DNA of 64,000 nucleotides from Candidatus Peribacteria bacterium RIFCSPHIGHO2_01_FULL_51_35 (GCA_001787535.1 MFXP01000015.1:22549-86548); one strand, 5' to 3'; numbered from the stretch's first letter, positions 9,919 to 60,968 are shown. Made by a program: numbers and translations. The notes: generated by a model not told the origin, from the letters alone.

Positions 9919-10005
9919 AAGAGATGTCCTGCAACTAGCCAGCAGTACAAAAAAGTAGCCCCATATCTTGCAAAACAGGGGATGCCTCTTTACCCTGCCC
10001 GAGCT

Positions 10006-10785
10006 ATGAAAAAGTTCCACACGTTGATCATTCCGCTGTTTGCGTTGGCCTTTCTTTTGGTGAGCTGCAAAGCGCCCGCCGTTACCAATGAGCCTCCTGC
10101 CACGAACGAGCAGACGAACGGAGAAGTATCCGGTACCCCATCTTCTATGGCCAATGATTCCTTCGACGGACAGATCCTCAAAGGCAAGCACACCGCCGTG
10201 TTTCACACGTCGATGGGGGATATCACGGTGCAATTGGATGCCGATGCCGCGCCGAAGACCGTCACGAACTTCGTGGCACTGGCAAAGTCCGGCTACTACA
10301 ACGGCTTGCTCTTCCACCGCGTCATTCCCGATTTCATGATTCAGGGAGGCGACCCGAACGGCAACGGCACGGGCGGCGAAAGCATTTTCGGTGATTCGTT
10401 TGAGGATGAGATCAACGCGAACACTTACGGACTCGACAAAAAGAAACTGAAGGATGCCGCAGCGGGACAGCCGCTGCCGGATGAAATCAAGGACAAGACG
10501 GTGAAGGAATACTACGAGATGCAAGGCTACGTCTACAATTCCAAACTGAAGTCTCTGCCAATGGTGCATGGCGCTCTCGCCATGGCGAACCGAGGTCCGA
10601 ACACGAACGGCAGCCAGTTCTTTATCGTTCAGGCCACTGCCACGCCGTGGTTGGATGGCAAGCACACGGTCTTTGGTAACGTCACCAAGGGACTCGACAT
10701 CGTCGATGCCATCGCCAAGGTTGCTCGCGACAGTTCGGATAAGCCGCTTGAGCCGATCACGTATAACGTGGAAATTGTAAAATAG
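10006..10785 (+). CDS. cyclophilin-type peptidyl-prolyl cis-trans isomerase, lipoprotein
   Basis: Lipobox LLVSC after [16 protein letters not shown]. Cyclophilin motifs [15 protein letters not shown] and SQFFI. The start is chosen at the internal Met. Confidence 0.9.
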
Positions 10786-10793
10786 CTCTTGTG

Positions 10794-10856
10794 GAAGACA
10801 TAAGACACAAGATGTAAGACAGCTGTATCTTGTGTCTTATGTCTTGTATCTTTTTT
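10794..10856 (+). terminator. AAGAC-word hairpin followed by a T-run (likely intrinsic terminator of the PPIase gene)
   Basis: AAGACACAAGAT (10802-10813) pairs with ATCTTGTGTCTT (10827-10838). The centre is ACAGCTGT and TTTTTT follows. Confidence 0.7.
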
Positions 10857-10861
10857 CCCGT

Positions 10862-12319
10862 ATGAGAACCAGATTCGCCCCTTCTCCAACAGGCTACCTT
10901 CATGTGGGGGGGCTGCGCACTGCGCTCTATTCCTATTTGATCGCGAAGCAGACGAAGGGCGAGTTTCTTTTGCGCATTGAAGATACGGATCAAGAACGCA
11001 GCGTGGAAGGCACAGTGGAAAGCATTCTTCGATCTTTGGAGTGGGCGGGAATTTCACCCGATGAAGGCGTTGTGCTCAAAGGAACATCAGTCGATCAGGT
11101 GGGAAAAGTGGGACCGTACTTCCAGTCTGAGCGTCTGGATGTGTATAAGAAGTACGCGCAGGAACTGCTGGAGAAAGGCCACGCGTATCCGTGTTTCTGC
11201 ACTGCGGATCGCCTGGCACAGATGCGTGATGATCAGACGAAAGCCAAGCAGGCACCCATGTATGACCGTCTCTGCATGTCTCTTCCTAAAGAAGAGGCAG
11301 CAAAACGCATGGCGAACGAGCCGCACGTGCTGCGCTTGAAAGTTCCACGCACGGAAGTGATTACATTTGAGGATGACATCCGTGGAAAACTCTCATTCCA
11401 AGGGCATGTCGTCGATGATCAAGTGCTGCTGAAGAGTGACGGCTTCCCGACGTATCATTTGGCGCATGTTGTGGATGACCATTTGATGAAGATCGACATT
11501 GTGATTCGGGGTGAGGAGTGGCTGAGTTCTCTGCCGAAACATTTATTGCTTTTCCGATACCTTGGCTGGACGCCACCGCGCTACGCACACGTGCCGCTGC
11601 TGCTGAATAAAGATAAAACGAAGCTGAGCAAGCGCCAGGGTTCCGTATCTGTGGAGGAATACATCACAAAAGGATACTTGCCCGAAGCACTTTTGAATTT
11701 CCTCGCGATGCTGGGATGGAATTCCGGCACAACACAGGAATTATTTTCATTGGAGGAACTCATTGATGCCTTTTCGATCGACCGCGTACAGAAATCCGGC
11801 GCGATTTTTGATCTGGAGAAGCTCGATTGGCTTCAAGGCCAGTGGATGCGGAAAATTGAGCCACCTGAATTTGCCGAACGGATCCTTCCGCTGGTTGCAG
11901 AGAAGTACCCGGATGCGAAAAAAGACAAAGATTTCGCAAAAAAAGCCGCGCTGATTCAGGAGCGTCTGACATTGTTCCCGGAAGCACCGGAGATGATGTC
12001 CTTTTTCTATGAAGAGCCAAAAGTCACCGTCGATCTGCTCGCGAACGAAAAGCAAAAGGTAACTTCTGCGGATGTTCCGAAGATTCTTGCGCTTCTCACG
12101 AGCACATTGGAATCCATTGACGATTGGACACTCCCGAATATTCAATCCGCACTCGAAAAACTTGCGACGGAAGGTTACAAAAAGGGTCAAATCCTCTGGC
12201 CGCTGCGCGCTGCACTTACCGGTAAACCATTCAGCCCGGGAGCATATGAAGTGGCGGAGGTACTTGGAAAGGAAGAAACGATAAAACGGCTTACAGCTGC
12301 TTTAAAATCGATCTCCTAA
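10862..12319 (+). CDS. gltX: glutamate--tRNA ligase
   Basis: RTRFAPSPTGYLHVGGLRTAL (HIGH region), KLSKR (KMSKS region), 485 aa from the internal Met. Confidence 0.95.
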   Translation: MRTRFAPSPTGYLHVGGLRTALYSYLIAKQTKGEFLLRIEDTDQERSVEGTVESILRSLEWAGISPDEGVVLKGTSVDQVGKVGPYFQSERLDVYKKYAQELLEKGHAYPCFCTADRLAQMRDDQTKAKQAPMYDRLCMSLPKEEAAKRMANEPHVLRLKVPRTEVITFEDDIRGKLSFQGHVVDDQVLLKSDGFPTYHLAHVVDDHLMKIDIVIRGEEWLSSLPKHLLLFRYLGWTPPRYAHVPLLLNKDKTKLSKRQGSVSVEEYITKGYLPEALLNFLAMLGWNSGTTQELFSLEELIDAFSIDRVQKSGAIFDLEKLDWLQGQWMRKIEPPEFAERILPLVAEKYPDAKKDKDFAKKAALIQERLTLFPEAPEMMSFFYEEPKVTVDLLANEKQKVTSADVPKILALLTSTLESIDDWTLPNIQSALEKLATEGYKKGQILWPLRAALTGKPFSPGAYEVAEVLGKEETIKRLTAALKSIS

Positions 12320-13678: not shown

Positions 13679-14533
13679 TCAAAACGGCAAATCCTCTGCT
13701 TTGATTTCGGATGCGTAGGCAATCTCCGGCACCTCTACGGATGCAGAGGCGGGAGCGCTGTCGTCCGACTTAGCATCAGAGCGGGCAGGACGTGCATCGG
13801 CACGGAAAGAAGTTTCCGCGACGGAGTTTTTCACGCCAAGGAGCAGAACGGAGTCTGCAATGACTTCCGTCGTGTAGCGCTTGTGGCCGTCTTTGGTTTC
13901 CCAACTGCGTGTTTGCACGCGGCCGGAAACAAAGACACGGTTGCCTTTCTTGATGTTGGAAGTGACTTCCTGAGCAAGCGCACCCCAGATGACGACGTTG
14001 TGAAATTCGGAACGCTCTTTGAGCTCATTCGTCGATTTGTCTTTCCACTTTTCATTCGTGGCGACACCCAGTGTCAGCACTTGTACGCCGCCGGTGGTGG
14101 TGCGCAGTTCCGGATCACGAGTGACGTGACCGATAATGTCTGCGCGGTTCAAATTATTGGTGATGGACTTTGCATTCGCAGGTGCTGCGAGCTGCCCGTC
14201 CTTGGGATCTAAAAGAATCATATCGAGCGCGACCATCTTGGTCTTGCTGCGCTTTTCACCGGTCTTTTCATCTTCCCAGCTGTCTGTTTGGAGGCGGCCC
14301 GCGACGAAGACGTGGCTGCCGGGTTTCACGAAACGTCCCGCGACGTCCGCCATGGGACCCCACAGAGTGACAGTGTGAAAGCCTTTGCCGTCCAGCATGT
14401 CGCCGCTTTCGGCTTTGAAGGAATAGGGAACGACAAGGTTAAGATCGACAACACTCGTACCGCTGGGCGTCTGCCGAGGGGAAACGGGTTCTGTCTGGTA
14501 GCCGATGATGTGCACGCGATTGAGGGAGAACAT
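13679..14533 (-). CDS. ssb: single-stranded DNA-binding protein with two tandem OB folds
   Basis: Two SSB-like OB segments (NRVHIIGYQT... and NRADIIGHVTRDPELR...), then a disordered Ala/Ser/Asp-rich tail ending in the acidic tip EDLPF. Confidence 0.85.
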   Translation of the reverse strand: MFSLNRVHIIGYQTEPVSPRQTPSGTSVVDLNLVVPYSFKAESGDMLDGKGFHTVTLWGPMADVAGRFVKPGSHVFVAGRLQTDSWEDEKTGEKRSKTKMVALDMILLDPKDGQLAAPANAKSITNNLNRADIIGHVTRDPELRTTTGGVQVLTLGVATNEKWKDKSTNELKERSEFHNVVIWGALAQEVTSNIKKGNRVFVSGRVQTRSWETKDGHKRYTTEVIADSVLLLGVKNSVAETSFRADARPARSDAKSDDSAPASASVEVPEIAYASEIKAEDLPF

Positions 14534-14839
14534 ATCTCGAAGGGAGAAATGGGATAAAAGGAGGTCACGAGCAGTGCGTGCTGCTTTACGATGACTTGGC
14601 TTCCGTCCTAGCTAGAAACGGCAACCGCCACAGTTGTACACTCGTACACCAATGGATGGCAACAGATTGTAGTGGCAAGAGCTCGTAATTATTTTCTAAA
14701 TATACATTTTCCTATCTCAAAATACAGGAATGTTTTCCGTCAACATCGGTTACGGGTTCTTGGCCTCAGCTTGCTGTGATCAGCATCATTTTTCTGTTAT
14801 AATTATCAGATTTTACATACACACACCCGCTCTTGGCTT

Positions 14840-17800
14840 TTGCTCATTTGCTCGGGATTCTTAGCTGCCCTGGGAGCCTCTGCAGTGCATGCCGAACATT
14901 TCTCTATCTCCAAAAATCCTCCGGCCTCCTTTGAGGAGATCAAGAAAGTCGTGACCGAGGACATTCCGAAGGATTTGAAAAAGGCGCAGTGCGGCGGATG
15001 GGATACGGATCAAAGCGTGGTGGGAAAAATTCCTGTCGTGACAGGCGTGCCGGGACGCGATGCGGATCCGCTGGGAAACATTCGCTCCGGCATGGCAAAA
15101 CGAAATGATAATTTTATTTTCCCCGATGAACCGACGACGAAAGGACTGGCGACTGCCTGCCAACCGAATGTCGGAAACAAAGATGATCCTGCATCGCAGA
15201 CAATCAAGGTGTTGCAGTGGACAGGTTTCGGCCCCGCGGAAAATAAACGGGAGATCGAGGTGCCGCATCCATACTTCGAGGATCCCCCTTGCGTGTGGCG
15301 GGCGGGTGGAGAAAAACTTCAGCCACCCTTGAACGAAGCGAAATGTCGTGAATTTTGCGAGTTTGTGAACAGTCCGCTCTTCACGTTCTGGGATTGCAGA
15401 GTGTCTGCGCCCATCTTGGACGATGCAGGCAATGTTGTCGGCACGCAATGCATTCAGGACGGCCAGAAATACACCTGCACGCAGGACTGGATAGACCTCC
15501 CCTTTGACGGAGGCGATCCGAACAATTCGGTGGATGCGAATCTCGCAGGCATCATTCCGCAACTGAAACAGTTCTGCGATCCGAATGCGCCGCACCCGGC
15601 GGCAGGTTTGTCCAATGCGCGTTCGTGCAGAGGAGAAGCATGCCGCACTGTCGAGGGAAACAACGCGCCATACATGTCGTACTACCGCAGTTATGAAGCA
15701 AGTTACCGACGCGATCCTGTGATCACGGACAAGAACACGGACATTGCCTCCAACAATGCGCAGGTGGCCTGTTACGGTCTCTACAGAGAATTCGATCCGA
15801 AGACGAAAGTGATGGAGAAAGAGGATCAACGGTGCGTGATCCAAATGGACGTGTCGCAATACCCAAAAAGCCAGCAGGGGAAGGGTGACACCAAGAGCGA
15901 TCTTGCGGATCCGGATCCTTCCGGGCCGATTCTTCGCGATCCGACGTTCAAGGAATCGGAGGATCTGTGGTACCAAAACTTGGGAGGAGGAATGTCCTTC
16001 CTGAACGACAAAGTATTTTCGGAAGAATTTGCGAAAGATTTATCGACGGCGCTCCTTACGGCCGACGAAGCCAAGCAGCGTGCGGCGCAGCCATTCGTCG
16101 ATCCTAAAAAGACGGTAGCCGATGCGGCGTTGGTGCGCGCGTTCGATGATACGGTTTCAAACGAGCGTGGCGATAAGCGCACCGTTACGGAATGGTGGCA
16201 GCGCTTGGAGACGGACGCCAACCGCATCTTCACACGACCGGTGGTGAGGCTGTTCCTCCCGCCCGCATGGTCGTTCGGCATCGATGCATTGGACCCCATT
16301 CTTGTGCAGAATGCGAACTCTCCGGAAGGATCGGATCCCGCGGCCGTGATTCGCAGCGACCCGCGCATGCTCTCCATCGAAGCGCAGTTGAATGCCAAGG
16401 AAGACACGCTGGGGCAAGTGGCAAAGTTGCTGGAGCGCAACCTTCTCTTCACGACGCAGGAGGAGATTATTCCGTTCGTCTACCCTCTGGGTTCTGTGAC
16501 GGAATTCCGGGCTGTGAAGCAAGCGTGGATCACGTGGCGAGCCATTCAGAAAGGCGCGGATGGATCTGCACCGTTCCCTGGCGAAGACGAAGTGAACGCC
16601 CTGATTGAAAAATTGGAACAGTACGCCATACAAGCGGAAGGCGTTCGCACGCTCCGTGCCGAACTGCCGCGCTACATTGGTCAGCTCACGGCCAGACAGC
16701 AGGAAATTGCCGCGGAAATTGCGGCGTGGGAGGAAAAGAATCTCACAGCGTACCGTGATTATCTCGTGGGACTCAAGCAAATGGATGAACTGCGCTCGAC
16801 GTGGAGAACACTCCAGCAGAAGTACATCGATTTCCATGACAAGACGAATATGCCGTGGTGCAAGAACGACCGCTTCACGACGTCGATCTACTCGCTCGTT
16901 TCCCTCTGGCTCCCGCAGCGCGAAGGGCAGCAAGGGTTGGATTTGGACAGCGACGATGTCGGCTCCTGCGAAGCGCAGGATGGCCTGCCTCGTTTCTGTG
17001 TTCCGGAGAACGAGAAAGATCTGGTCTTCGATTTCACTCATATGGAATTCACGCGTGCAAAGACTCCCGTGAAAATCCCGGTGCTCAAGCCTACGCTCGT
17101 GCGCTTACAGCTTCCGCTGCCGCCGGGGCACACGGAAACAATCCAAGATCCAAAGGCGCTGGAACTGCCGGATTTCCCGCCGGTGCCTTCCATTTTCGCA
17201 GCGCTCTCTCAGCAACCGTTTCCGCAAATCAAAAAGCCGATCAACGCTCCCGACATCATCGAAGTGAACAGGCTGCTGCCCAGCGAACCGCGCATGGAAC
17301 AGTGGAAAGACGTGCTCACGCGGGCGACGACGGTCATCACGAACATGAACGAAGCCTACAAACAATTCTGGGACAGCATTCAGATGTTCGATCCCGCGTG
17401 GCGCGAGCGTGAAAAAATGCCCGAGCCGACGTGCGATACCGAAGACGGTCCCGTGCCTATGCAACCGTTGGACTGTTGCGGCTTCGGCAAGGTGCACTGC
17501 GTGCACCCGGAGCCGGATCTGCTCGAAAGGATCAAGCGCATCGGCGACAGGCCCGCAGTCTTGGTCAAGGAAGATTTCCAAGCGAGGGGTGACCCAAGAA
17601 AATTGCCCGAATGCGACCCGAAAGATCATGTGTGCCAGACGGTGCTCCCGGAGGAGCGATCGCAGGTGCAAGGGTGGCAGGTGCAGATGCCGAAGGAATC
17701 GCCCGACGCGGAAACCATGATCGAAAAACTGCGCACGAACCTGCGCGAACAAACACTCACGCCCGCAGCAGAGATCCGGGGCAACATTCCATATGAGGAA

Positions 17801-17893
17801 TCGGCGACCGAACTCTACCCCGTATTCGACGTGCCGCGCGCATTTGATCTGCGTCCGCCCGTGAAATCTTCTTCTTCGTCCTCCACGCAATGA
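14840..17893 (+). CDS. secreted Cys-rich protein 1 of a five-gene operon (1017 aa, unknown function)
   Basis: The longest ORF in the region, with a hydrophobic N-terminus LICSGFLAALGASAVHA. It has a TTG start in the track, so the start is uncertain. Many Cys residues. Its stop overlaps the next start (ATGA). Confidence 0.7.
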   Translation: MLICSGFLAALGASAVHAEHFSISKNPPASFEEIKKVVTEDIPKDLKKAQCGGWDTDQSVVGKIPVVTGVPGRDADPLGNIRSGMAKRNDNFIFPDEPTTKGLATACQPNVGNKDDPASQTIKVLQWTGFGPAENKREIEVPHPYFEDPPCVWRAGGEKLQPPLNEAKCREFCEFVNSPLFTFWDCRVSAPILDDAGNVVGTQCIQDGQKYTCTQDWIDLPFDGGDPNNSVDANLAGIIPQLKQFCDPNAPHPAAGLSNARSCRGEACRTVEGNNAPYMSYYRSYEASYRRDPVITDKNTDIASNNAQVACYGLYREFDPKTKVMEKEDQRCVIQMDVSQYPKSQQGKGDTKSDLADPDPSGPILRDPTFKESEDLWYQNLGGGMSFLNDKVFSEEFAKDLSTALLTADEAKQRAAQPFVDPKKTVADAALVRAFDDTVSNERGDKRTVTEWWQRLETDANRIFTRPVVRLFLPPAWSFGIDALDPILVQNANSPEGSDPAAVIRSDPRMLSIEAQLNAKEDTLGQVAKLLERNLLFTTQEEIIPFVYPLGSVTEFRAVKQAWITWRAIQKGADGSAPFPGEDEVNALIEKLEQYAIQAEGVRTLRAELPRYIGQLTARQQEIAAEIAAWEEKNLTAYRDYLVGLKQMDELRSTWRTLQQKYIDFHDKTNMPWCKNDRFTTSIYSLVSLWLPQREGQQGLDLDSDDVGSCEAQDGLPRFCVPENEKDLVFDFTHMEFTRAKTPVKIPVLKPTLVRLQLPLPPGHTETIQDPKALELPDFPPVPSIFAALSQQPFPQIKKPINAPDIIEVNRLLPSEPRMEQWKDVLTRATTVITNMNEAYKQFWDSIQMFDPAWREREKMPEPTCDTEDGPVPMQPLDCCGFGKVHCVHPEPDLLERIKRIGDRPAVLVKEDFQARGDPRKLPECDPKDHVCQTVLPEERSQVQGWQVQMPKESPDAETMIEKLRTNLREQTLTPAAEIRGNIPYEESATELYPVFDVPRAFDLRPPVKSSSSSSTQ

Positions 17894-18729
17894 AACGCAT
17901 TCTTTTGATTCTCATCGGCATCGCTCTTCTGCTCCAACCCGCTCTTGTGAGAGCCGCTGCGCAGACGCCATCGGGCGCGTGTCTGCAAGCGGTGAACAAG
18001 GAGCTCTCCCGGGAGCAGCGTATTTATAGAACCATGCTCTTCGGATTTACGAAGGCTGCCGATGCGCCGCTGGGCGACCGGCGATACGACAAAGAAGGCA
18101 ATGCGTGGATCAAAATGCGCAAAAATTCTTGGCGCTCGCAGACAAAAGGATTTGGGGGGGCGACGTGGTCCGATGCACAGATGGATTTGATGGTGGAGCG
18201 GGACTTTATGGCGGCAACCCCCGTACGTCGCGGCATTTTTGAGACGAAGAAGGCGCTGACCTCGGAGCTGATTCCTCCACTCCTCCAGAGTTTCCGCGCA
18301 TTCCGCTGTCGCGTGGAAGCCGTATGCAAAGCGGTGTCGCTGAGCATTCCGCAGAGCGGCTCGACGGAAGGAAAAATATTGAAGGTTGAAACGCCCGGGT
18401 GCATGGATTTCGCAATGTCGCCCGTGGAAGCCTGCATGCTGGGAGCAGAGAAGGATGCCGATGGCACGTTCGCACACAAAGGCGATGAAGCCGTTGCACG
18501 CACGTACTGCACGCATGTGGGACAGCAACTTTTGGAACGTGAGAGTGATGTGCTGAAGCTCGCGGTTTCCTATGACGCCGCATATCGGTCGCTGCTGCAG
18601 TTCGCAGGACACTTCGATCTGTTCCTGGAGGAATTCCGGACATCCATTTCCACCCCCATTCGCCAGGCAGTTTCCCTTCTGGGACAACTGCAACAAATTC
18701 CGTGTTTCATTTCGCAATGTGATGAATAA
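17890..18729 (+). CDS. secreted Cys-rich protein 2 (279 aa, unknown function)
   Basis: MKRILLILIGIALLLQPALVRAAA signal-like N-terminus and an ATGA overlap with the upstream gene. Confidence 0.7.
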   Translation: MKRILLILIGIALLLQPALVRAAAQTPSGACLQAVNKELSREQRIYRTMLFGFTKAADAPLGDRRYDKEGNAWIKMRKNSWRSQTKGFGGATWSDAQMDLMVERDFMAATPVRRGIFETKKALTSELIPPLLQSFRAFRCRVEAVCKAVSLSIPQSGSTEGKILKVETPGCMDFAMSPVEACMLGAEKDADGTFAHKGDEAVARTYCTHVGQQLLERESDVLKLAVSYDAAYRSLLQFAGHFDLFLEEFRTSISTPIRQAVSLLGQLQQIPCFISQCDE

Positions 18730-18757
18730 CACCCACGCCAAGTTCGGCGAAGCGATC

Positions 18758-19567
18758 ATGCATCTTGCAAAAAGATGCAAGACACAAGACACAAGATACA
18801 AACGATTATTTCTTGCGTCTTGTATCTTGTGTCTTAACGTTGGAGTAGTTGCAATAGCCATCGGCACATTTGCAATAATGCATTCGAATGCGAATGCTCA
18901 AAACACCGATCGTGCGGAACCCGTGCTGGCCGCATGTTCCGGCTCCTCCATCGTATTTCCCAAGAATCGTTTCATCTTCCTCACGAATCCCGTGGAACGC
19001 TTGCGCAGGGACTACCACGCAACCGTGGAAAAAGTCATCACCGCGCACATGGAAGAGCGCACGATTGTCTGCACGGAAGGCGTGCGCGAAGTGCCTACAG
19101 AGGCATTGAATGATCTTGCAGAGAGACTGCCGCCGTGGCGTTCTCCCATTCGCTCCGCCGGTCTTCGTGAATCCGATATCAGCGCCGTGCTGCTGGAATA
19201 CGTGCGCGTCTATGAATGCGCCCTGAAGGAACATGAGTATTTCGGCGCAACGCGCGTCGCGAAGGATACGGAAGATGGCGCGGGCATCTTCAATATCTTC
19301 AGGTTCTTGAATACGTCCGCCGAGCGCACGGATTTGATCCGTAAAGAATTGATCTTCGCTCGGCGCGCACTGGAACGCACGCTTGCGCTCCTCGGCGGCA
19401 TGGATCGCTTGCGCCCGGTGGATGCGAGCTTGGAATGTTTACAGCTCTCATCCTTTGAGATTCGAAACCTCGTTGCTCTCGCAGCGGACGCGGCGTCCTG
19501 CATACCGCGCGCACTGGATGCAAAAACCTCCCTCCGCGACATCTCCGCAGATCCTCCCGTAGAATGA
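18758..19567 (+). CDS. secreted/membrane-anchored protein 3 (unknown function; start uncertain)
   Basis: In-frame ATG at 18758 gives MHLAKRCKTQDTRYKRLFLASCILCLNVGVVAIAIGTFAIMHSNANA, which is signal-like but encoded by the arms of a word hairpin. The alternative ATG at 18879 would lack a signal. Confidence 0.55.
   Translation: MHLAKRCKTQDTRYKRLFLASCILCLNVGVVAIAIGTFAIMHSNANAQNTDRAEPVLAACSGSSIVFPKNRFIFLTNPVERLRRDYHATVEKVITAHMEERTIVCTEGVREVPTEALNDLAERLPPWRSPIRSAGLRESDISAVLLEYVRVYECALKEHEYFGATRVAKDTEDGAGIFNIFRFLNTSAERTDLIRKELIFARRALERTLALLGGMDRLRPVDASLECLQLSSFEIRNLVALAADAASCIPRALDAKTSLRDISADPPVE
18786..18835. repeat. AAGAC-word hairpin between or overlapping operon genes 2 and 3
   Basis: AGACACAAGATACA pairs with TGTATCTTGTGTCT around a ~20-nt loop. 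It uses the same word family as 10794-10856 and the arms flanking 37193-37558. Confidence 0.85.
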
Positions 19568-22023
19568 AACGCCTGCTTGCCACCGTCGGCATCTTTACGC
19601 TGCTGCCATCCTCTGCGTTGGCAGCTGCTCCGTCTCTGTACGATGCCGCGCAGGAAATGGTCAGGAAGGAATTGATGTTGGATGAAAACTTGGAGCCGCA
19701 CGCGGATGAAGACGTCGCACGTTTCGCATCGGAACTGATTCCGAAAGGAGATCCTCCGTGGAAGAAAGAAGAGATGGATGACGTGCTGCGAAAAAAATTC
19801 GAGACGCTCTGCGGCAAAACACCCGATCATCCCTCCGTGGATATCGGCCGCTGCGCGGAATTAATGGAAAATGTGACGAACACGATGCGCAAGGAAGAGA
19901 CACTCCGCGCGCTTGGACGCGAACTCCAAGGTATTGCGAGCAGCTACGAACTCGCCATCGACGGGTACCCCGGCAGGGAAACGACACTCCCTTCACGGTA
20001 TGCAAGTTTGACACTGCTCTGGCAAGCGGGGCAGAAGAAGGGCGATGAACCGGGCAAGACGCGCATCCGCATGTTCACGCTGCCGAAGGACGATGCTTGG
20101 AAGAAAAACGTGAGTGCCATCGAAGACATGGTCGGACAGCTCTCGGGCGAGGAACGCACGGGCGCCGTCTGGCGCTATCAACATGGTGTGCGCTACGTCC
20201 AAGGCAAGCGCGGGGATTTTCCGCTCCCGAAAGAGACTGACCCCGCCGTCAACGGCCCCGGCACCGAACGTCAGTATCTTTCCAAGCGATGGGATGGGAC
20301 CACGGATGAGCATAACCTTGAAGCGGTGCTCACGACGGCATGGGAGACGTTGCTCACACATCTCGCAACAATGGACGCGCCGCTCCAACGAGGAGATGTG
20401 GTCTTCTTCCCCGCGATTCCATTGGGAGATGTCATCGGGTGGGCGTACGTCGAAACGTGCAAGGACGCAAAGAATCAAACATTCAACTGCGTCTTGGCGC
20501 GTGTCGGCAATGCGCAAATCGCCGTGACGGGAGACATTGGTCTACAGTGGAGTACGCCGTTGGATCCCGTTCAACCGGGACTGATTACAGATCCCGAGAG
20601 TGCGTGTGAGGAAGGGGATCCTGACTGTCCCGCCATTCTCGGTGGGCTGTATCCGCCGCCGCCCGAAGACGGCTCCGGTCTCTGCACGTTCCCGTTTGCC
20701 AGAGCCGGCTACCTCTGCCGTCCCCTGGAAGGAGAAAATGTGAAAGCCTGCGAGAATGCGATTGAACGCACTGCCGCGGACGAAGACAAGATTATCCTGA
20801 CGGAATGCATCTCCGGCGTCCGGCACGAAACCGAGCAAGGACCCAATGTCTGCCGCGATGTCCTGTGGCAATCCTCGCCGACCACGGCTGCCTGCGAAGC
20901 GAGTGATGTGGAAATCTCCTGCGGCCCCTGCGAGAGCATCGCATTCGCTTCCAAGCGCGAAGCGGGGCACGTGAAAGTCTGTCTGCAGGATAACTTCCTG
21001 CACAAAGGTGAGCCCGTCGACGCAAAGTACTTCCTGATGCACGAACTGGTGCATGCACAGGAACTCGTGACGCGCGAGACGCTCTTCTATGCCAACGCCG
21101 CGCAGTGCTGCGCCAAGGAGAAGGAAGCGAACCGCTTCATGTGCGAAGCCATGCAGAAGGACGGCGTGTTCGAGGGAACGTCCATGACCGCGGAAACGTG
21201 TGCGCAGACCACGACGAACGGAAGCTGTGTCGGCTTCGGCGAAAACGTCTGCTTCCCGAAGACGCCGGATTCGTTCTCTGTGATTCTCGATCAACTGCAA
21301 AAAACGGACGATGTGAAAGGATGCACGCCGGGCGTGCCGCCCGATCTTTCTGACCCGCGCATCCAGGCTCTCCTCCACGGCACGCGACAACTGAGTCGGG
21401 CGCAATGTGAGACGACGTACGCAAACACCATCGGCAACAACATGTGCTACATCGGCCAGATGATGGAAGAGAGCATGGAACAGCATCGACTCATTCCCGG
21501 ACGCACGCCATTTACGACGGGAGATGAACAGTATCCGTGGGATGCCTGCGCTACGCCGGATCCCATGCTCGCAACGTTCATGACCCCGCCACCGCGCACG
21601 CTCTCTGTCCTGCCCGTGTATAACCCGGCCGCCCTGATTAAGGAATTCGATGAAGCACTCTGCCAACTCAACGGACTTCCCGCGCACAGTCTCCCCGTGG
21701 AATGTGCGACGGATGCCAGCAGACGACTTTCCGCCATTCTTTCAGACTATCTGCAGAACGCAACGTCGCTCATCGACCAGGCTGCCGACCAAGAGAGCAC
21801 CGTCGATCGCTTGCAAGCGCTCTCGACAAGCGTCGGCACGCGTCTCGGCACCATGTTCTACGTTCGCTACTTGAAACAAGCCAGTCGCGCCCTCACTGAA
21901 GTGACGCAGACGGCAAGCGAACTCCTGGAAGACTTGAGCGGCGTCACCTTCACACAAGATTCCTGCCCGCGCAATGGAGCAACCAACAAGTTGATTGATC
22001 ATCCGTCGTGTCCCGTCCTATGA
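19564..22023 (+). CDS. secreted Cys-rich protein 4 with an HExxH (zincin-like) motif (819 aa)
   Basis: MKRLLATVGIFTLLPSSALAAAPS signal-like N-terminus. FLMHELVHAQE at nt 21040-21054. ATGA overlaps on both sides. Confidence 0.7.
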   Translation: MKRLLATVGIFTLLPSSALAAAPSLYDAAQEMVRKELMLDENLEPHADEDVARFASELIPKGDPPWKKEEMDDVLRKKFETLCGKTPDHPSVDIGRCAELMENVTNTMRKEETLRALGRELQGIASSYELAIDGYPGRETTLPSRYASLTLLWQAGQKKGDEPGKTRIRMFTLPKDDAWKKNVSAIEDMVGQLSGEERTGAVWRYQHGVRYVQGKRGDFPLPKETDPAVNGPGTERQYLSKRWDGTTDEHNLEAVLTTAWETLLTHLATMDAPLQRGDVVFFPAIPLGDVIGWAYVETCKDAKNQTFNCVLARVGNAQIAVTGDIGLQWSTPLDPVQPGLITDPESACEEGDPDCPAILGGLYPPPPEDGSGLCTFPFARAGYLCRPLEGENVKACENAIERTAADEDKIILTECISGVRHETEQGPNVCRDVLWQSSPTTAACEASDVEISCGPCESIAFASKREAGHVKVCLQDNFLHKGEPVDAKYFLMHELVHAQELVTRETLFYANAAQCCAKEKEANRFMCEAMQKDGVFEGTSMTAETCAQTTTNGSCVGFGENVCFPKTPDSFSVILDQLQKTDDVKGCTPGVPPDLSDPRIQALLHGTRQLSRAQCETTYANTIGNNMCYIGQMMEESMEQHRLIPGRTPFTTGDEQYPWDACATPDPMLATFMTPPPRTLSVLPVYNPAALIKEFDEALCQLNGLPAHSLPVECATDASRRLSAILSDYLQNATSLIDQAADQESTVDRLQALSTSVGTRLGTMFYVRYLKQASRALTEVTQTASELLEDLSGVTFTQDSCPRNGATNKLIDHPSCPVL

Positions 22024-23396
22024 AGCGTCTTGCTTTCGTCATCGGCTTCGTTCTTCTGCTCGCTCCAAACGTGACGCATGCGCAATCCGCAGTGAGTCCG
22101 TACATGCAACGCGTCATCACGCGTGCGGAAGCAGGCATCGCGTTTGCGAAGGAGAGCGGCTCCTTGGAGGCGGCCGTTACATTTTTCCTTCCGTCTTTCC
22201 GGCCGTTCATGGAAATGGCAGGCTCCACCGTGCTCGGCCTCATCGATACGAAGCAGCGCATCATCGCGATGGAAAAGGATCTCACCGAAAATACCGCCTG
22301 TCTGCACATCGATCTCTTCCTGCTGGAAATGGAGATCAAGCGTGTGCAGGAAGCCGTGAATGACGAAGCGAAGAAAGGAAACGTGCTCGGCGTCCTGCGG
22401 CTCCAAGACATCCTCCTCTTCTTGGACGAGCGACTGGACATCGTGCTCCGTGGAAGCAGAGATCCCACGATTCAGGATGGAACGTGGACAAAGAAACGCA
22501 TGTTCGACCGTCCGGGAACGGATACGGCCGGATCCATCTGTCCATTCCACACCGATTACCTCCCTCCGAGCATCGCCTCGGGGTACGGCTGCGATGCCGA
22601 GAAACTCCAATCCATTGTCGAAGCGTTGGAATCACCGCTGAAGGAAACCGTTGTCGCGGAAACCTTGGCTGCAACGGACATTGCGTCGGTGCTCAGAAAA
22701 TACGTACAGGAAGCCCAAGCGCTCCTCTCACTGGAGCAACGTATCAATCGGCTTTTGGGACGCTCGACAGACACTATCGTCTCTTCCACGGAAATTCCCG
22801 CACATCGCACCGTGACAGGATGCCCTGTGGAGTGGCCGGAGGATGCGGACAGAAACAAGGATAGTTGGCCGGATGACGCGCTGGCATGGGAACTTCGCCA
22901 TATGCGTTTTGAACGTGATGAGCGAAAAATCATGCATGCGTTCCAGGAACTCCGCGTGACGCAATCTGCCGCACGTCCCGTATCCGACGCGTTCCGGAGT
23001 GAATCACAAAATCCTCTGGAAGACACATTGAACGCCCAAGGCGCGCGCACATTCTCCGCCTTCAGCAGGAAACAAGGACTTCGCGAGAGTGAAATCTTTG
23101 CGCAATCGGCGGACACGCACCTTGCGATTTCGGATTCCATCGGCACGTTGAAAAAATCCATCGGCGTCATTGCGCAGCTCGCCAAGAACCGAGACAAGCT
23201 CCGCGGGTTCGTCCGCGACTTCGCCTATTACCTGCGCCGCACGTGCATCGACCGTCCGTGCAACGCACGTTTGGATCAAATCCTCAAAATCGTCTTCCAG
23301 GATGACTGCTTCCCCTACACGAACGGCGAATACTTGGATGGCAAGAGTTACGAGCAGTGCAAAGCGGCTGCGGGGCTGGAGGAGGTGAAGCCTTAA
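22020..23396 (+). CDS. secreted protein 5 (458 aa, unknown function)
   Basis: MKRLAFVIGFVLLLAPNVTHA signal-like N-terminus. ATG 22020 overlaps the upstream TGA. Confidence 0.7.
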   Translation: MKRLAFVIGFVLLLAPNVTHAQSAVSPYMQRVITRAEAGIAFAKESGSLEAAVTFFLPSFRPFMEMAGSTVLGLIDTKQRIIAMEKDLTENTACLHIDLFLLEMEIKRVQEAVNDEAKKGNVLGVLRLQDILLFLDERLDIVLRGSRDPTIQDGTWTKKRMFDRPGTDTAGSICPFHTDYLPPSIASGYGCDAEKLQSIVEALESPLKETVVAETLAATDIASVLRKYVQEAQALLSLEQRINRLLGRSTDTIVSSTEIPAHRTVTGCPVEWPEDADRNKDSWPDDALAWELRHMRFERDERKIMHAFQELRVTQSAARPVSDAFRSESQNPLEDTLNAQGARTFSAFSRKQGLRESEIFAQSADTHLAISDSIGTLKKSIGVIAQLAKNRDKLRGFVRDFAYYLRRTCIDRPCNARLDQILKIVFQDDCFPYTNGEYLDGKSYEQCKAAAGLEEVKP

Positions 23397-23400
23397 AGCA

Positions 23401-23697
23401 CTACAGCACGCTGTTTGTCTTTTCCATTAATTCGCAAAAATCTTTATGGTCTTTATCGAAACCAAACAGGCCATGTTTTTCGCCATAGTATGCGTTATGT
23501 AATTCCTGAGCCGTTGCCCGTATTGTAGCGAGAATCTCCGAATCGATAACTGCTTCCTTTTTCAGGACGTTTCTTCGGACAAACTGATGAACAGCCCTCA
23601 TTCCGAAGATGATATCGGGATCAGCATTTTTTTCCTTTCTTTGGGCCAGCAAGGAATCCCATATATTTTGAACGGTCATTTCAGGGCTTTTTGCCAT
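23401..23697 (-). CDS. hypothetical protein
   Basis: The internal Met of ORF 23401-23994 is chosen so the gene does not overlap the dnaE start. A+T-richer patch. Confidence 0.3.
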   Translation of the reverse strand: MAKSPEMTVQNIWDSLLAQRKEKNADPDIIFGMRAVHQFVRRNVLKKEAVIDSEILATIRATAQELHNAYYGEKHGLFGFDKDHKDFCELMEKTNSVL

Positions 23698-23829
23698 AAA
23701 AAGAAGGAGAACAAGAAAAGGTGGAATCGTAATTTGATAGGAACAAGGAGTCAATATATTGCAAAACAGATGCCTTATTTCCCCTAAGACATGCGAATCC
23801 AGACCTTTTTCGTATGCTATCCTCTTTCT

Positions 23830-26800
23830 ATGAAACCCGAGGACTTTGTCCATCTCCACTGCCACTCCACCTACTCGCTGCTGGAAGCTCTCCCGAGTCC
23901 GGCGGAGATTGTTGCGCGTGCGAAGGAGCTCAAACAAACCGCAGTCGGCATCGCGGATAAAGGATACGGATACGGACTCATCGAGTTCTATCAAGCCGCC
24001 GAGAAAGAAGGAATGAAACCGATTCTCGGAATGGATGTGTATGTCGCAGCGCGCAAGCGCACGGATAAAGAGAGCGGCGTGGATACGAAACGGTTCCCGC
24101 TGACGCTGTTCGCGGAAACACAGGAGGGTTACGAAAATTTATTGAAGCTTGCGACACTCGCGGCGTTGGAAGGCATGTACTACAAGCCGCGTGTGGACGG
24201 CGAACTCCTTTCCAAATACGGAAAAGGATTGATCGCACTCACGGGGCCCATCAGTGGAGCCATTCCGCAGGCGGCATTGGCGGAAGATGGAAAGAGGATC
24301 CAGGCGCTCACGGAAGAATATCAATCGTACTTCGGAAAAAAGAATGTGTACTTTGAATTGATGGACTTGCCGAACGTCACGGGACAGGCGGAAGTGAATC
24401 AGCAGCTCATCAAATACGCGAAGGAGCTGAATGTGCCGCTCGTCGCGACGTGCAACAGTCACTACTGCCGCACGGAAGATTCGGAAGCGCATGACGTACT
24501 CCTCTGCATCCAAAAAAATGCGAATGTCAGTGATCCCGGAAGATTTTCCATGCGCGATTCGGATTTCTCCATGCGCCCGTTCGAAGAAATGGAGGAAGCA
24601 TTCGCGCACGTGCCGGAAGCAATGGCAAATACGCGCGTGATTGCGGACAGGTGCACTGTTTCTTTTCAGTTCGGCAAGAATCAGTTGCTGAAATTCCCCG
24701 TGCCAAACAAAGAATCGGAAGATGTCTACCTCACACGTTTGTGTGAAGAAGGATTCCGCGATCGATATCCTTCGCCGACCAAGGAACATACTGATCGATT
24801 GGCATATGAGTTGGATATTGTGAAGCAAACGGGTTTTGCCGGATACTTCTTAATCGTCGCGGACTTCATTAATGAAGCGAAACGACGCGGTATTGCCGTC
24901 GGCCCCGGACGCGGCTCCGCTGCAGGATCCATCGTGAGCTACAGCCTTGGCATCACGACGTTGGATCCTCTGGCGCACGGGCTTCTGTTCGAACGCTTCT
25001 TGAATCCGGAACGCATCACCATGCCGGACTTTGATATCGACTTTGCCGACACGCGACGCGATGAAGTACTCAACTACGTGCGCGAAAAATACGGCCGTGA
25101 CCGTGTCATCCAGATCTGCACATTTGGAACACTCGCTGCACGCGCTGCGGTGAAAGATGTGGGGCGCGCGTACGGCGTGCCGTTTTTAGAGATGAACAAC
25201 TTGGCAAAATTGATTCTGGATCGTCCCGGGACAAAGCTCAAAGACGCGCTTGCCACGGACGAACTCAAGGCTGCGTACGACCAGAACGAGATGTACCGGA
25301 AGATCATCGACACGGCGCTGAAGTTGGAAGGAAAAGCGCGGCACGTGTCCGTGCACGCCTGCGGCGTCATCATCACGGAGAAGCCGGCAGAGAATTACAC
25401 GCCGCTGCAACGTGCACCGAAAGACGACGAGACGATTATCACACAATATTCGGCAAAGCCATTGGAGGCACTGGGGCTCCTGAAGATCGACTTTCTTGGT
25501 CTTATGAACTTAACGGTGATCCAAACCACGCTTTTGATCATCGAGCGTTTGCACGGAACGAAGATCGACCTCGCGAAGATTCCGACGGAGGACAAAGAGA
25601 CGTTTCGGCTGCTGCAGCACGGCGACACGACAGGCGTGTTCCAGTTGGAATCCGTAGGGATGCGCAGGTACTTGAAACAATTGAAGCCGACCGTCTTCGG
25701 CGACATCACGGCGATGGTGTCTCTGTACCGTCCCGGCCCGATGGAGTGGATCCCGAGTTTCATCAAACGCAAGCACGGCACGGAAAAAGTCCGCTATGCG
25801 CATGATGACCTGAAAGCGATCTTGGAACCGACATACGGCATAGGCGTGTACCAAGAACAGGTGCTGCAGATGGCGCAGGTATTCGCCGGATTCTCGCTGG
25901 GCGAAGCCGATCTTCTGCGTCGCGCCATCGGCAAGAAGATCAAAAAGGAACTGATGGCACAGCGGGAGAAATTCATAGCTGGTGCCGTGAAGAAAAAGTA
26001 TTCCAAGGAACTTGCCGAGGAAATTTTCGATGATGTCATCACGCCGTTCGCGGGATACGGTTTCAACAAATCGCATGCGACGGGCTACGCGCGCCTGGCA
26101 TATGAAACGGCGTACTTAAAGGCGCACTACCCGACGGAATTCATGGCGGCGCTCCTCAGCAGCGACGCAGAACGCACCGACCGCGTGATGATCGAAATAG
26201 AGGAATGCCGGGCGATGGGCATCACCGTGTTGCCCCCCGACATCAATGAGTCGCTCCGCCATTTCACTGCGATTGGCGGGACAAAAGAAATTCGTTTCGG
26301 CCTCACTGCCATCAAAGGCATTGGCGACAGCTCCGTGCTCGCCATTATTGCAGCGCGGGAAACGGGCGGACCGTTCACGTCGCTGGAAGATTTTGCTCGC
26401 CGCCTCCCGACAAAGGTTCTCAACAAAAAATTGCTGGAGGCGTTGGCAAAATCCGGCGCACTGGATTCGCTGGGCGAGCGCAGGAAAATCTTGGAGCACT
26501 ACGACGCCATCATTGATTTCAAAAAATCCACAGGTGACACGGACGGCGGGCAAACGGATCTGTTTGGGACGCTGGACGGCGGCATGGCAAAAAGCATGAT
26601 CGAATTTCCGCCGACGTCTGCGGCAAGTCCGCTGGAAAAACTTAAGTGGGAGCGCGAAGCATTGGGCATGTACGTCTCCAGCCACCCGCTGGCCGGACTC
26701 CGGAAGTACGTGGGCAAAAAAGCGCAGCTGGTTGCGAACCTGACGCACAAGGACGCGGGGAAAATCGTCACAATTGCGGGTATAGAGGAAGGGATAAAGA

Positions 26801-27561
26801 AACTGACGACCAAGAAAGGGGAAACCATGGCCATCGTGCAGCTGGAAGATCCGACCGGAAAAATAGAAGTAACACTCTTCCCTCAAACCTACGCGGACGC
26901 GGCACAGATTCTTGGGTTGCCGGACACCGTCCTCGTTGTGAAAGGGACATTGGACGTACGCGCAGGGCAACTCCAAGTGCGTGCCAACGCCATCAAGAAA
27001 GCGTCGCTCGCAACCATGATCCAACATGCGAAGGAGGAAGGATTTTTCGACGAGGAAGAAGCGAAACACGGCCTTGCGATGGTGCGCAGAGACGAGGACA
27101 GCGACACGGTCGATCTGGTCGACGAAGAAGGAAATGTCATCGCAGGAGAAACGGTGAAACTCGGTGGCGCGGCCGAAGACACGAGTGATGAATTTTACGG
27201 ACCACTCGGGAAGTGGATCTTCATGGGCATGAAAACGGACGAAGTACTCAAAATTCTGGGCTTAGGAAAGCCAGAAAAGGAGGATGAGGATTCCGGACGC
27301 GCTCCTGTTGTTTCCGCTGCGCCGAAAACGTCCCCCACGAGCATTTCCATCCATACGATCCCGTTACCGGCACAAGCCCCCAAAAAGCTGCTCCTCGACC
27401 TCAAAAAAGTGCTGGAAACGTTCCCGGGAAAGGAAAAAATACAACTACGGATCGGTGAGCAGCTCATTCCTCTCCCACTAACCGTCAGTATGTCCACAAT
27501 TCTGGAGAAAAAGGTGGAAGAAGTGTTGCAAAAGTACGAGAATGAGAAGGTCGTGTTGTAA
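23830..27561 (+). CDS. dnaE: DNA polymerase III alpha subunit
   Basis: PHP domain start FVHLHCHSTYSLLEA, polymerase core (FERFLNPERITMPDFDIDF) and OB fold; ~1243 aa. Confidence 0.95.
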   Translation: MKPEDFVHLHCHSTYSLLEALPSPAEIVARAKELKQTAVGIADKGYGYGLIEFYQAAEKEGMKPILGMDVYVAARKRTDKESGVDTKRFPLTLFAETQEGYENLLKLATLAALEGMYYKPRVDGELLSKYGKGLIALTGPISGAIPQAALAEDGKRIQALTEEYQSYFGKKNVYFELMDLPNVTGQAEVNQQLIKYAKELNVPLVATCNSHYCRTEDSEAHDVLLCIQKNANVSDPGRFSMRDSDFSMRPFEEMEEAFAHVPEAMANTRVIADRCTVSFQFGKNQLLKFPVPNKESEDVYLTRLCEEGFRDRYPSPTKEHTDRLAYELDIVKQTGFAGYFLIVADFINEAKRRGIAVGPGRGSAAGSIVSYSLGITTLDPLAHGLLFERFLNPERITMPDFDIDFADTRRDEVLNYVREKYGRDRVIQICTFGTLAARAAVKDVGRAYGVPFLEMNNLAKLILDRPGTKLKDALATDELKAAYDQNEMYRKIIDTALKLEGKARHVSVHACGVIITEKPAENYTPLQRAPKDDETIITQYSAKPLEALGLLKIDFLGLMNLTVIQTTLLIIERLHGTKIDLAKIPTEDKETFRLLQHGDTTGVFQLESVGMRRYLKQLKPTVFGDITAMVSLYRPGPMEWIPSFIKRKHGTEKVRYAHDDLKAILEPTYGIGVYQEQVLQMAQVFAGFSLGEADLLRRAIGKKIKKELMAQREKFIAGAVKKKYSKELAEEIFDDVITPFAGYGFNKSHATGYARLAYETAYLKAHYPTEFMAALLSSDAERTDRVMIEIEECRAMGITVLPPDINESLRHFTAIGGTKEIRFGLTAIKGIGDSSVLAIIAARETGGPFTSLEDFARRLPTKVLNKKLLEALAKSGALDSLGERRKILEHYDAIIDFKKSTGDTDGGQTDLFGTLDGGMAKSMIEFPPTSAASPLEKLKWEREALGMYVSSHPLAGLRKYVGKKAQLVANLTHKDAGKIVTIAGIEEGIKKLTTKKGETMAIVQLEDPTGKIEVTLFPQTYADAAQILGLPDTVLVVKGTLDVRAGQLQVRANAIKKASLATMIQHAKEEGFFDEEEAKHGLAMVRRDEDSDTVDLVDEEGNVIAGETVKLGGAAEDTSDEFYGPLGKWIFMGMKTDEVLKILGLGKPEKEDEDSGRAPVVSAAPKTSPTSISIHTIPLPAQAPKKLLLDLKKVLETFPGKEKIQLRIGEQLIPLPLTVSMSTILEKKVEEVLQKYENEKVVL

Positions 27562-31954: not shown

Positions 31955-32015
31955 TGGTGCCCAGGAGAGGACCCTTCCTCGCTTCGCTCGTCAGGGCAGG
32001 CTTGAACCTTCACTT
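31955..32015 (-). repeat. duplicated 3' fragment of tRNA-Leu (acceptor/T-arm remnant with a ~29-nt insertion)
   Basis: TGGTGCCCAGGAGAGGAC (31955-31972) is identical to 32288-32305. A further CTTGAACCT match follows after the inserted CCTTCCTCGCTTCGCTCGTCAGGGCAGG. Confidence 0.85.
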
Positions 32016-32248
32016 TTCCATAGGCGCTCTTTCTTCTCTCGTCTCCATCCTTTGATTTCTTTTTCACGTTTTCGAGCTGAAACTCGATCGAGCCGAGGCT
32101 CCGACCAAATCAAGTGTTTCATGGGAATCTTCTTTGTGTGACTGCATGCAATTCCGGCAATGTGTTCGGAAAGACGTCTTTGAAGATTATCAGTATGCCC
32201 TACATAATAGGATCCATCTGCCAACTCTAGAATATAAACATGGAACAT
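31991..32248 (-). CDS. GIY-YIG nuclease family protein (small, stand-alone)
   Basis: MFHVYILELADGSYYVGHTDNLQRRLSEH... The start is at the internal Met; the longer track ORF would run into the tRNA. Confidence 0.8.
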   Translation of the reverse strand: MFHVYILELADGSYYVGHTDNLQRRLSEHIAGIACSHTKKIPMKHLIWSEPRLDRVSARKREKEIKGWRREKKERLWKSEGSSLP

Positions 32249-33333: not shown

Positions 33334-33545
33334 TTCTCTTGATTATAGCAGAAATGGCGTTTAAATGCAATATACGACGAATGTGGGTGTGGGCTGTTCG
33401 CTGTGAATAACCTCACCCCCGGCCCCTCTCCTACCTGCCAATTCCATCATACAAAAACACACTGCCGACCAGGAGAGGGGTGAGTGCTGTATGCTATTTT
33501 CTTATGGTCTACGTAGAATCTCCGGCCAAACGCAGATGGCGAAAA

Positions 33546-33911
33546 ATGATCTACGCACGATTGCTGCGCAGGCGCATGACCGAAGCAGAGGCATTCCTTT
33601 GGAAAGCATTGCGATCCAGGCGGTTTGCTCACCTAAAATTTCGACGGCAGGTTCCCATCGATGTCTATATCGTCGATTTTCTATGTTGGGAATACCAATT
33701 AATTCTGGAAATTGATGGAGGCATTCACTTGTCCCAAAAAGACCGTGACCTCTTCCGTGAAGATGAGCTCGAAAAGCGAGGATTCACCATCTTACGTTTT
33801 ACAAATGAAGAAGTTCTCTCTCATCTCCATGGAGTTCTGACGACAATTGAAAATGTGATCAAACAAAAACACCAACATCCCCCTCTCCGGGTAAGCGAAG
33901 AGACCTTGTGA
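33546..33911 (+). CDS. DUF559 (Vsr-like fold) endonuclease-domain protein
   Basis: RRRMTEAEAFLWKALRSRRF...FRRQVPI..YIVDF......LILEIDGG.H......D..R...L...GF.ILRF.N.EV is the characteristic DUF559 pattern. Confidence 0.8.
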   Translation: MIYARLLRRRMTEAEAFLWKALRSRRFAHLKFRRQVPIDVYIVDFLCWEYQLILEIDGGIHLSQKDRDLFREDELEKRGFTILRFTNEEVLSHLHGVLTTIENVIKQKHQHPPLRVSEETL

Positions 33912-37167: not shown

Positions 37168-37197
37168 AGAAGTAAGACTCAAGACATAAGACTTAAG
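37168..37197. repeat. left arm of a split AAGAC-word hairpin flanking the four-helix-bundle gene
   Basis: GAAGTAAGACTCAAGACATAAGACTTAAG matches the reverse complement of 37585-37613 at about 22 of 29 positions. Confidence 0.75.
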
Positions 37198-60892: not shown

Positions 60893-60968
60893 GCCGCTGT
60901 AGCTCAGTTGGTAGAGCAACTCACTTGTAATGAGTAGGTCACCGGTTCAAATCCGGTCAGCGGCTCCA
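60893..60968 (+). tRNA. tRNA-Thr (anticodon UGU), CCA encoded
   Basis: GCCGCTG-TA-GCTCAGTTGGTAGAGC-A-ACTCA-CTTGTAA-TGAGT-AGGTC-ACCGGTTCAAATCCGGT-CAGCGGC-T-CCA. Confidence 0.95.

Follow-up and report, generated by a model that had tools for sequence, protein, structure and literature searches.

Five consecutive plus-strand genes, here called p1–p5, lie between ssb and dnaE in a 64,000-nucleotide (nt) stretch of Candidatus Peribacteria bacterium RIFCSPHIGHO2_01_FULL_51_35 (GCA_001787535.1, MFXP01000015.1:22549-86548; the whole stretch is called the window, and coordinates refer to it unless a locus number is given). That p1–p5 form one translationally coupled operon is firmly supported. Sequence comparisons also give firm support to the views that the operon was vertically inherited and is restricted to Peribacteria/Peregrinibacteria, that all five protein families are exported via Sec, and that the exported proteins fold in a disulfide-rich manner. 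The explanation favoured here, to which about an even chance is given, is that of a lineage-specific operon whose five Sec-exported, disulfide-folded products would act jointly as an envelope-associated complex.

Much of bacterial diversity belongs to the Candidate Phyla Radiation (CPR)/Patescibacteria. Their genomes hold many lineage-specific unknowns, and the majority of the envelope proteins specific to these lineages have yet to be characterised. Since 2016, the genes studied here have been publicly available under the name ‘hypothetical protein’. In the literature searched, no description was found of the cluster, its conservation, the cysteine parity rule or the zincin-like domain dealt with below, nor any report of a cultured member of the Peregrinibacteria. 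By the tests made here, the cluster appears to be outside known systems. It constitutes a well-delimited, lineage-wide target of five families without detectable relatives elsewhere, and its sequence leads to a biochemically testable prediction, namely that of disulfide-rich proteins with one unpaired Cys each in p3 and p4. If the products do form a surface machine, this bears on envelope maintenance or partner attachment in these cells; if they do not, the outcome would still be five novel families of exported proteins, together with a divergent zincin-like domain rich in disulfides.

Gene organization and translational coupling

An earlier note on this DNA, made from the sequence alone, had claimed five plus-strand open reading frames (ORFs) from ssb to dnaE, and all of them were confirmed: p1 at 14840-17893 (1017 amino acids (aa), TTG start), p2 at 17890-18729 (279 aa), p3 at 18722-19567 (281 aa, or 229 aa if a later start is used, instead of the ~270 aa given before; the frame itself is open over 18572-19567), p4 at 19564-22023 (819 aa) and p5 at 22020-23396 (458 aa; frame open over 22008-23396). 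The starts of p1 (14840 or 14885), p3 (18722 or later) and p5 (22020) are gene calls on identical public contigs; the alternative p1 start at 14885, used by some gene callers, gives a 1002-aa product from which the signal peptide is removed. Identical proteins are encoded on Rifle-aquifer metagenome contigs and in GCA_001787565.1, and p2 is A3D88_00640 in Candidatus Peribacteria bacterium RIFCSPHIGHO2_02_FULL_52_16.

The ATGA start/stop overlaps reported at 17890, 19564 and 22020 were all three read on the sequence, and the p2/p3 overlap amounts to 8 nt, given the p3 start at 18722. Among the orthologous loci, the 4-nt overlap is kept at 26 of 51 p1/p2 junctions, 44 of 59 p3/p4 junctions and 39 of 57 p4/p5 junctions, with median intergenic gaps of −4, −1, −4 and −4 for p1/p2, p2/p3, p3/p4 and p4/p5, respectively. 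The tight coupling indicated by these conserved overlaps supports the proposal of a single transcript.

Upstream, the operon is flanked by gltX, murB and the divergent ssb (13679-14533, minus strand), and downstream by dnaE (23791-27561, plus strand), sua5, nrdR and aspS. No ORF was called in the ssb/p1 intergenic region (14534-14839, plus strand), which is presumed, by inference only, to be the promoter region of the operon; consensus promoter and terminator scans performed no better than on shuffled sequence. On the opposite strand, between p5 and dnaE, there is a 98-aa ORF (23401-23697, minus strand) that gave no Pfam match and is present in all the strain-level contigs.

Distribution and conservation of the operon

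The scan of one genome per GTDB species yielded 67 loci, labelled with L-numbers, all from records titled Peribacteria, Peregrinibacteria or Patescibacteria except two titled just ‘bacterium’. When these loci were examined by tblastn, the order murB, ssb (minus strand), p1, p2, p3, p4, p5, dnaE, sua5 was found wherever the contig was long enough. The occurrence of the same location and order in 67 species-level genomes points to vertical inheritance since the lineage ancestor. Of the three outcomes that the earlier note had named as counting against its reading, none occurred: the order is conserved lineage-wide, signal peptides are present and, as described below, no confident matches to known families were obtained. 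Gene order, overlaps, signal peptides and cysteines are all kept across the 67 genomes, a pattern beyond chance.

The identity of p1–p5 to the window proteins is 25–50%, compared to 60–78% for ssb and dnaE, or 52–78% when murB is included. Judged from these values, p1–p5 are fast-evolving yet always retained. The homologues found for p1 (23), p2 (73) and p4 (20) come from Peribacteria, Peregrinibacteria and Patescibacteria records only and are all named ‘hypothetical’; an exhaustive profile search among 1.84 billion cluster representatives returned 273 relatives of p4. Genes 963–967 of the complete Ca. Peribacter riflensis genome are the orthologues of p1–p5 and encode products of 1030, 279, 263, 821 and 521 aa, every one annotated as ‘hypothetical protein’.

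The idea that p1–p5 are mobile, phage-derived or defence-island cargo placed between ssb and dnaE can be taken as effectively refuted. The identical location and order in 67 species-level genomes speak against it, as do the lack of integrase, repeats or tRNA at the operon borders and the lack of any PHROG or meaningful PADLOC match; the observations that could be cited in its favour are a GC content slightly higher in parts of the operon (0.575–0.59) than in the flanks and one faint PADLOC match around the p4 HExxH helix.

Five genomes (L014, L016, L020, L047 and L063) contain an insertion of ~3 kb between p5 and dnaE. The one in L014 (14005-16983) holds a minus-strand gene (15075-16136) for a Cys-rich protein of 353 aa whose N-terminus has a hydrophobic anchor, and a 162-aa ORF (16328-16816).

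Export signals and membrane topology

Signal peptides were scored with a home-made heuristic based on a hydrophobic core in the first 30 residues and on small residues at positions −3/−1. By this heuristic, the hydrophobic N-terminal core is present in at least 94% of the orthologues of every family, in agreement with the Sec-type, signal-like N-termini previously claimed. The core and the small residues occur together in 47/52 p1, 58/60 p2, 56/60 p3, 57/61 p4 and 63/65 p5 orthologues. The window proteins p2, p4 and p5 begin with MKRILL, MKRLLA and MKRLAF, respectively, and the N-terminus of p1 is short and hydrophobic, ending AVHA/E. Further transmembrane-like segments are absent from the window proteins p1–p5 and essentially absent among their orthologues. 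None of the window proteins contains an LPXTG sorting signal (searched as LPx[TSA]G) or gives a Pfam match to the SLH domain.

The N-terminus of p3 deserves separate consideration. In 29 of 60 orthologues, the signal peptide ends in a lipobox ([LVI][ASTVI][GAS]C), for instance LYGC in L007 and L023 and LTGC in L010. In the window p3, the n-region is long and charged and leads into a hydrophobic stretch of 26 aa, and the LASC tetrapeptide (residues 31–34) is near the start, not the end, of the hydrophobic stretch (aa 27–55). It seems more likely from this arrangement that the window p3 is a signal anchor, or a late-cleaved/signal peptidase I substrate, than a lipoprotein.

Cysteine content and parity

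The Cys content of p1–p5 is 1.75–3.5%, and that of the other long ORFs of the window is mostly below 1.5%. The average for the Peribacter proteome is 1.67% (PMC4736985), which makes the Cys content of p5 about average for the lineage. The columns conserved in at least 90% of the orthologues are dominated by Cys, with 14 in p1, 5 in p3, 19 in p4, and 8 of 8 in both p2 and p5; the eight conserved Cys of p5 include a C-terminal CFPY...C pair.

Although Cys counts in the mature proteins vary, each of the five families keeps its parity. The count is even in 49/52 orthologues of p1 (range 14–46), in 58/60 of p2 (exactly 8 in 57/60) and in 61/65 of p5 (range 8–26), and it is odd in 57/60 orthologues of p3 (exactly 5 in 52/60) and in 57/61 of p4 (range 13–39). 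The parity deviants are mostly mis-started or truncated ORFs, or cases with the lipobox Cys counted in. A paired-change test was run on the differences in Cys count along the edges of minimum spanning trees joining nearest relatives. Even differences outnumbered odd ones by 26:1 in p1 (p = 2e-7), 29:5 in p4 (p = 2e-5) and 25:5 in p5 (p = 2e-4). An example is the joint loss of C611 and C633 of p4 in the window and in L012. The gain and loss of Cys in pairs is to be expected of disulfides, and gives independent support for an oxidising, extracytoplasmic location of the proteins. A disulfide-forming protein has been reported in Peribacter genomes (PMC4736985). The ‘disulfide-bonded’ part of the earlier reading is thus supported by the conserved parity of the Cys counts.

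The matched odd parity of p3 and p4, whose genes are adjacent and coupled, suggests one unpaired Cys in each protein, and its most economical reading is that p3 and p4 are probably joined by an intermolecular disulfide. The covariation of p3 and p4 among the parity deviants was uninformative, as the deviants are mostly mis-started or truncated ORFs, and no p3–p4 gene fusion was found among the long relatives of p4.

The zincin-like domain of p4

The p4 protein is made up of a signal peptide, a conserved N- and C-terminal core and, inserted in it, a zincin-like domain (aa ~445–590; 20896-21333, plus strand). The HELVHAQE sequence pointed out in the earlier note is indeed present at residues 493–500; it is not an isolated motif, but sits in this domain of HExxH...E pattern. 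HELVH corresponds to aa 493–497 (21040-21054, plus strand), and E519 (21118-21120, plus strand) is the candidate for a third zinc ligand of the gluzincin kind, 22 residues past H497 and within a predicted helix (512–532). Conservation of these residues among p4 orthologues (H493 52/61, E494 50/61, H497 52/61, E519 53/61) defines an HExxH-x21-E signature found in ~85% of them.

The AlphaFold2 (AF2) model of p4, built with 14 sequences, was poor overall (predicted local distance difference test, pLDDT, 55.8), with block means of ~64–86 over aa 491–580. In this model, HELVH lies in a helix (487–503) preceded by strands and followed by the helix 512–532 with E519.

The window p4 gave no match to Pfam PF09768 (Peptidase_M76; gathering score 25.2 bits). 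When 25 p4-domain sequences were run singly against Pfam, matches were obtained to Peptidase_M76 (5), M91 (4), DUF6782 (3), YgjP-like (2) and eCIS_core (2). With 59 full-length p4 cluster representatives, M76 again came first (7 members), followed by M91 and DUF6782. All the families named are zincins, and they were the most-matched Pfam families for p4 in the two independent sequence sets; zf-MYND also matched two members. The best Peptidase_M76 match among the orthologues reached 23.5 bits (E 5.3e-5) against the cut-off of 25.2 and spanned profile positions 26–141 of 170, and the M76 alignments extended up to positions 26–146.

Sub-threshold Pfam matches to M76, the Atp23 family, come from 12 p4 family members, with DUF6782 and M91 as neighbouring zincin families. 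The p4 domain combines HExxH with a conserved Glu located 22 positions past the second His, is rich in Cys and would work in an oxidising compartment. The founding member of M76, the protease Atp23, has ten cysteines and is located in such a compartment, the mitochondrial intermembrane space. On the other hand, the p4 domain differs in forming part of an exported bacterial protein of 819 aa whose flanking regions are unrelated, in that the p4 model gave no structural match, and in its motif being degenerate in some members, duplicated in one and deleted in one subclade. With matches that are recurrent but sub-threshold, the domain is best called zincin-like, its M76 membership not being established, and its protease activity is plausible but unproven.

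The domain behaves as a variable unit within p4. The short p4 proteins of L073–L077 (520–693 aa; ~10001-11900 per locus) lack residues ~418–610, i.e., the zincin-like domain, and the domain is also missing from a class of 620–690-aa relatives. The relative P0143 has two copies of the domain, the first with the degenerate motif IQEVAKA, and the relatives P0119 and P0123 carry, before the domain, one or two extra modules of ~45 aa with six Cys (WCC...C...C...GGSPS...C.ANGC). Short and long p4 proteins alike have an odd number of Cys, which implies that the zincin-like domain carries an even number of Cys.

Search for known families

Scans of the window p1–p5 against NCBIfam and PHROGs gave no usable match, and those against Pfam and PADLOC gave isolated sub-threshold matches alone. 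Member-by-member Pfam scans of the p1, p2, p3 and p5 alignments produced scattered single matches that look like noise, apart from the PF18895 matches of p5 described in the next section. When PDB sequences were searched with profiles of each of the five families, no match had an E value below 0.3.

Along p1, a Cys-rich N-terminal segment (aa ~50–335), a helical middle, a Pro-rich segment (aa ~745–800) and a C-terminal Cys cluster (aa 865–932) can be distinguished. The AF2 model of p2, obtained with 69 sequences, was confident (pLDDT 89.0; predicted template modelling score, pTM, 0.78) and displays three long helices (27–51, 124–152 and 197–248) plus a beta-rich head. A Foldseek search with this model gave no significant neighbour, the best E values being 0.74 in PDB and 0.15 in BFVD. 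RRF, flagellin and NlpC/P60 were considered as structural neighbours of p2 and rejected (E >0.7 and low TM-scores). Paralogy among p1–p5 was rejected too, as hhalign aligned their signal peptides alone, which leaves five distinct families. The absence of a recognised family, asserted earlier by eye, therefore holds in the Pfam, NCBIfam, PHROGs, PADLOC and PDB-sequence comparisons, and in the PDB/BFVD structure comparisons made.

p5–pilin fusion and type IV secretion

The sole above-threshold Pfam match in the five families was found in p5 of L015 (9368-11428) and L018 (5652-7709), two related groundwater Peregrinibacteria metagenome-assembled genomes. In both, p5 is extended by a Pro/Ser-rich linker leading to a C-terminal PF18895 (T4SS_pilin) two-helix, two-transmembrane hairpin, with a score of ~36 bits versus a cut-off of 26.6. 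This fusion places p5 at the outer face of the membrane in the L015/L018 lineage.

The fusion raises the question of whether p1–p5 are extracellular accessory parts, e.g., a tip or adhesin complex, of a type IV secretion system (T4SS) or VirB2-like pilus encoded away from virB4. VirB2-like pilins are common in Patescibacteria; in the class Gracilibacteria, T4SS components are divergent as well as scattered, and the Patescibacteria repertoire known so far lacks adhesins (PMC12102498). Like those systems, p1–p5 would be Sec-exported CPR envelope components, and the PF18895 match of p5 in two genomes is bona fide, being above the gathering score. Nevertheless, the fusion is confined to one lineage, the window p5 has no pilin domain, and a search for pilin-like sequences within the operon or next to it was negative for the window and for the other 65 loci. 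Moreover, between ~10 kb upstream of the operon and the 3′ end of the window, the precomputed Pfam annotations of the called genes include no VirB4, VirB6, VirD4 or other T4SS family. The p1–p5 operon differs from a T4SS in having no ATPase or channel genes nearby. The window p1–p5 themselves gave no match to T4SS Pfam families, and the two-helix pilin hairpin may be a mere membrane anchor. Considering all this, a T4SS accessory role is very unlikely.

Joint action, host attachment or independent action

The favoured explanation, a jointly acting envelope-associated complex, can be sketched as follows. The five proteins would be co-translated, exported via Sec and folded with disulfides outside the cytoplasm. 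The membrane-proximal subunit would be p3, which about half of the species would have as a lipoprotein and the others with an N-terminal anchor or signal. Each of p3 and p4 would keep exactly one unpaired Cys, and both would probably be joined by one intermolecular disulfide. An accessory protease domain of the zincin type (HExxH...E, Atp23/M76-like), dispensable in one subclade, would be supplied by p4, and may serve to trim either a partner or a surface protein that is its target. With its Cys-rich head, helical middle and Pro-rich stretch, p1 may reach outward through the wall; p2 would contribute a helical stalk with a beta head, and p5 would be one more subunit, at the membrane's outer face. 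That the proteins physically form a complex in which p4 has p3 as its membrane-proximal partner is plausible but unproven. The operon is single-copy and has a fixed place among housekeeping genes, which is suggestive of a core structure of the cell surface, not of a variable adhesin. Envelope assembly or maintenance and partner-cell contact are both possibilities for its role.

Several points weigh against this explanation. Conserved synteny by itself is no proof of a complex, and the locus L076 (1-7854) seems to lack p1 and p5, with ssb followed directly by p2. The export calls rest on the home-made heuristic, not on SignalP, and the start codon of p1 is uncertain. The odd Cys counts of p3 and p4 could mean free thiols, metal ligands or homodimers, and the p3 of L044 has lost C72, yet the count of its p4 is still odd. 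Concerning the protease domain, every zincin Pfam match was below the gathering score, a Foldseek search of the p4 model against PDB gave no match with E <1 and no zincin, a few orthologues have a degenerate HExxH, and L073–L077 have lost the domain.

The five products could alternatively act independently, as secreted proteins that are co-transcribed without assembly (e.g., a protease along with unrelated factors for the wall or for nutrient scavenging). The lack of relationship among the five families is consistent with this, as is L076, which seems to keep p2–p4 without p1 and p5. Against it, gene order and overlaps are kept down to ~25% identity, as is typical of stoichiometric partners, and the matched odd Cys parity of the adjacent p3 and p4 would be hard to explain, so that independent action appears quite unlikely.

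A third reading, already offered in the earlier note as an example, is that of host attachment or interaction, where a five-protein surface adhesin complex would bind a partner cell and the p4 protease would act on the host surface. Peribacteria have been inferred to be symbionts, and an attachment role has been proposed for their Cys-rich extracellular proteins (PMC4736985), of which 20 large ones (580–3860 aa, 2.4–11% Cys) are given in Table S4 of that work, including a 14-gene cluster, with strain variation reported. The proteins p1–p5 resemble that set in belonging to the same organisms and in having signal peptides, many Cys and a proposed extracellular location. They differ from it in their lower Cys content (1.75–3.5%, compared to 5–11% in the strain-variable adhesin candidates) and strict synteny, and the p1–p5 orthologues (genes 963–967) are not among the 20 proteins of that table. 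PrgB-type adhesins have not been found in Patescibacteria (PMC12102498), so unknown adhesins must exist. Attachment would also agree with p1–p5 being exported and disulfide-stabilised, and with a divergence much faster than that of the neighbour genes (25–50% versus 60–78% identity). However, the operon is single-copy and at a fixed position in every genome examined, and adhesin-type repeats and lectin, fn3, Ig or LPXTG features were not detected in p1–p5. This constancy and the strictly vertical inheritance fit a core part of the envelope better than the adhesin candidates of Peribacteria, which vary between strains and are far richer in Cys. On balance, host attachment seems unlikely.

Beyond the favoured complex, a bolder proposal is that p1–p5 constitute a so far unrecognised extracellular apparatus of Peribacteria/Peregrinibacteria, with new folds, a p3–p4 disulfide and an optional protease, acting as a core for surface building or partner contact. 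This is considered possible, though rather doubtful.

Other observations in the window and loci

In L010, the Sua5/YciO/YrdC gene that follows dnaE (18845-19951) encodes 368 aa and contains a DUF559/MTES_1575 endonuclease-like segment with a Sua5 match on either side, an arrangement suggestive of an insertion into the gene. The window contains a standalone DUF559 gene (33504-33911, plus strand) and a GIY-YIG gene (31991-32248, minus strand).

Adjoining mfd there is a gene for a 118-aa protein (37193-37549, minus strand) annotated as 23S_rRNA_IVP/bAvd, a four-helix-bundle family that includes accessory proteins of diversity-generating retroelements. Further downstream, a 150-aa protein (59826-60278, plus strand) gave a weak N_methyl (type IV pilin-like) match, and its gene and a Y1_Tnp (IS200-type) transposase gene (61252-61695, plus strand) flank a tRNA-Thr (60893-60968).

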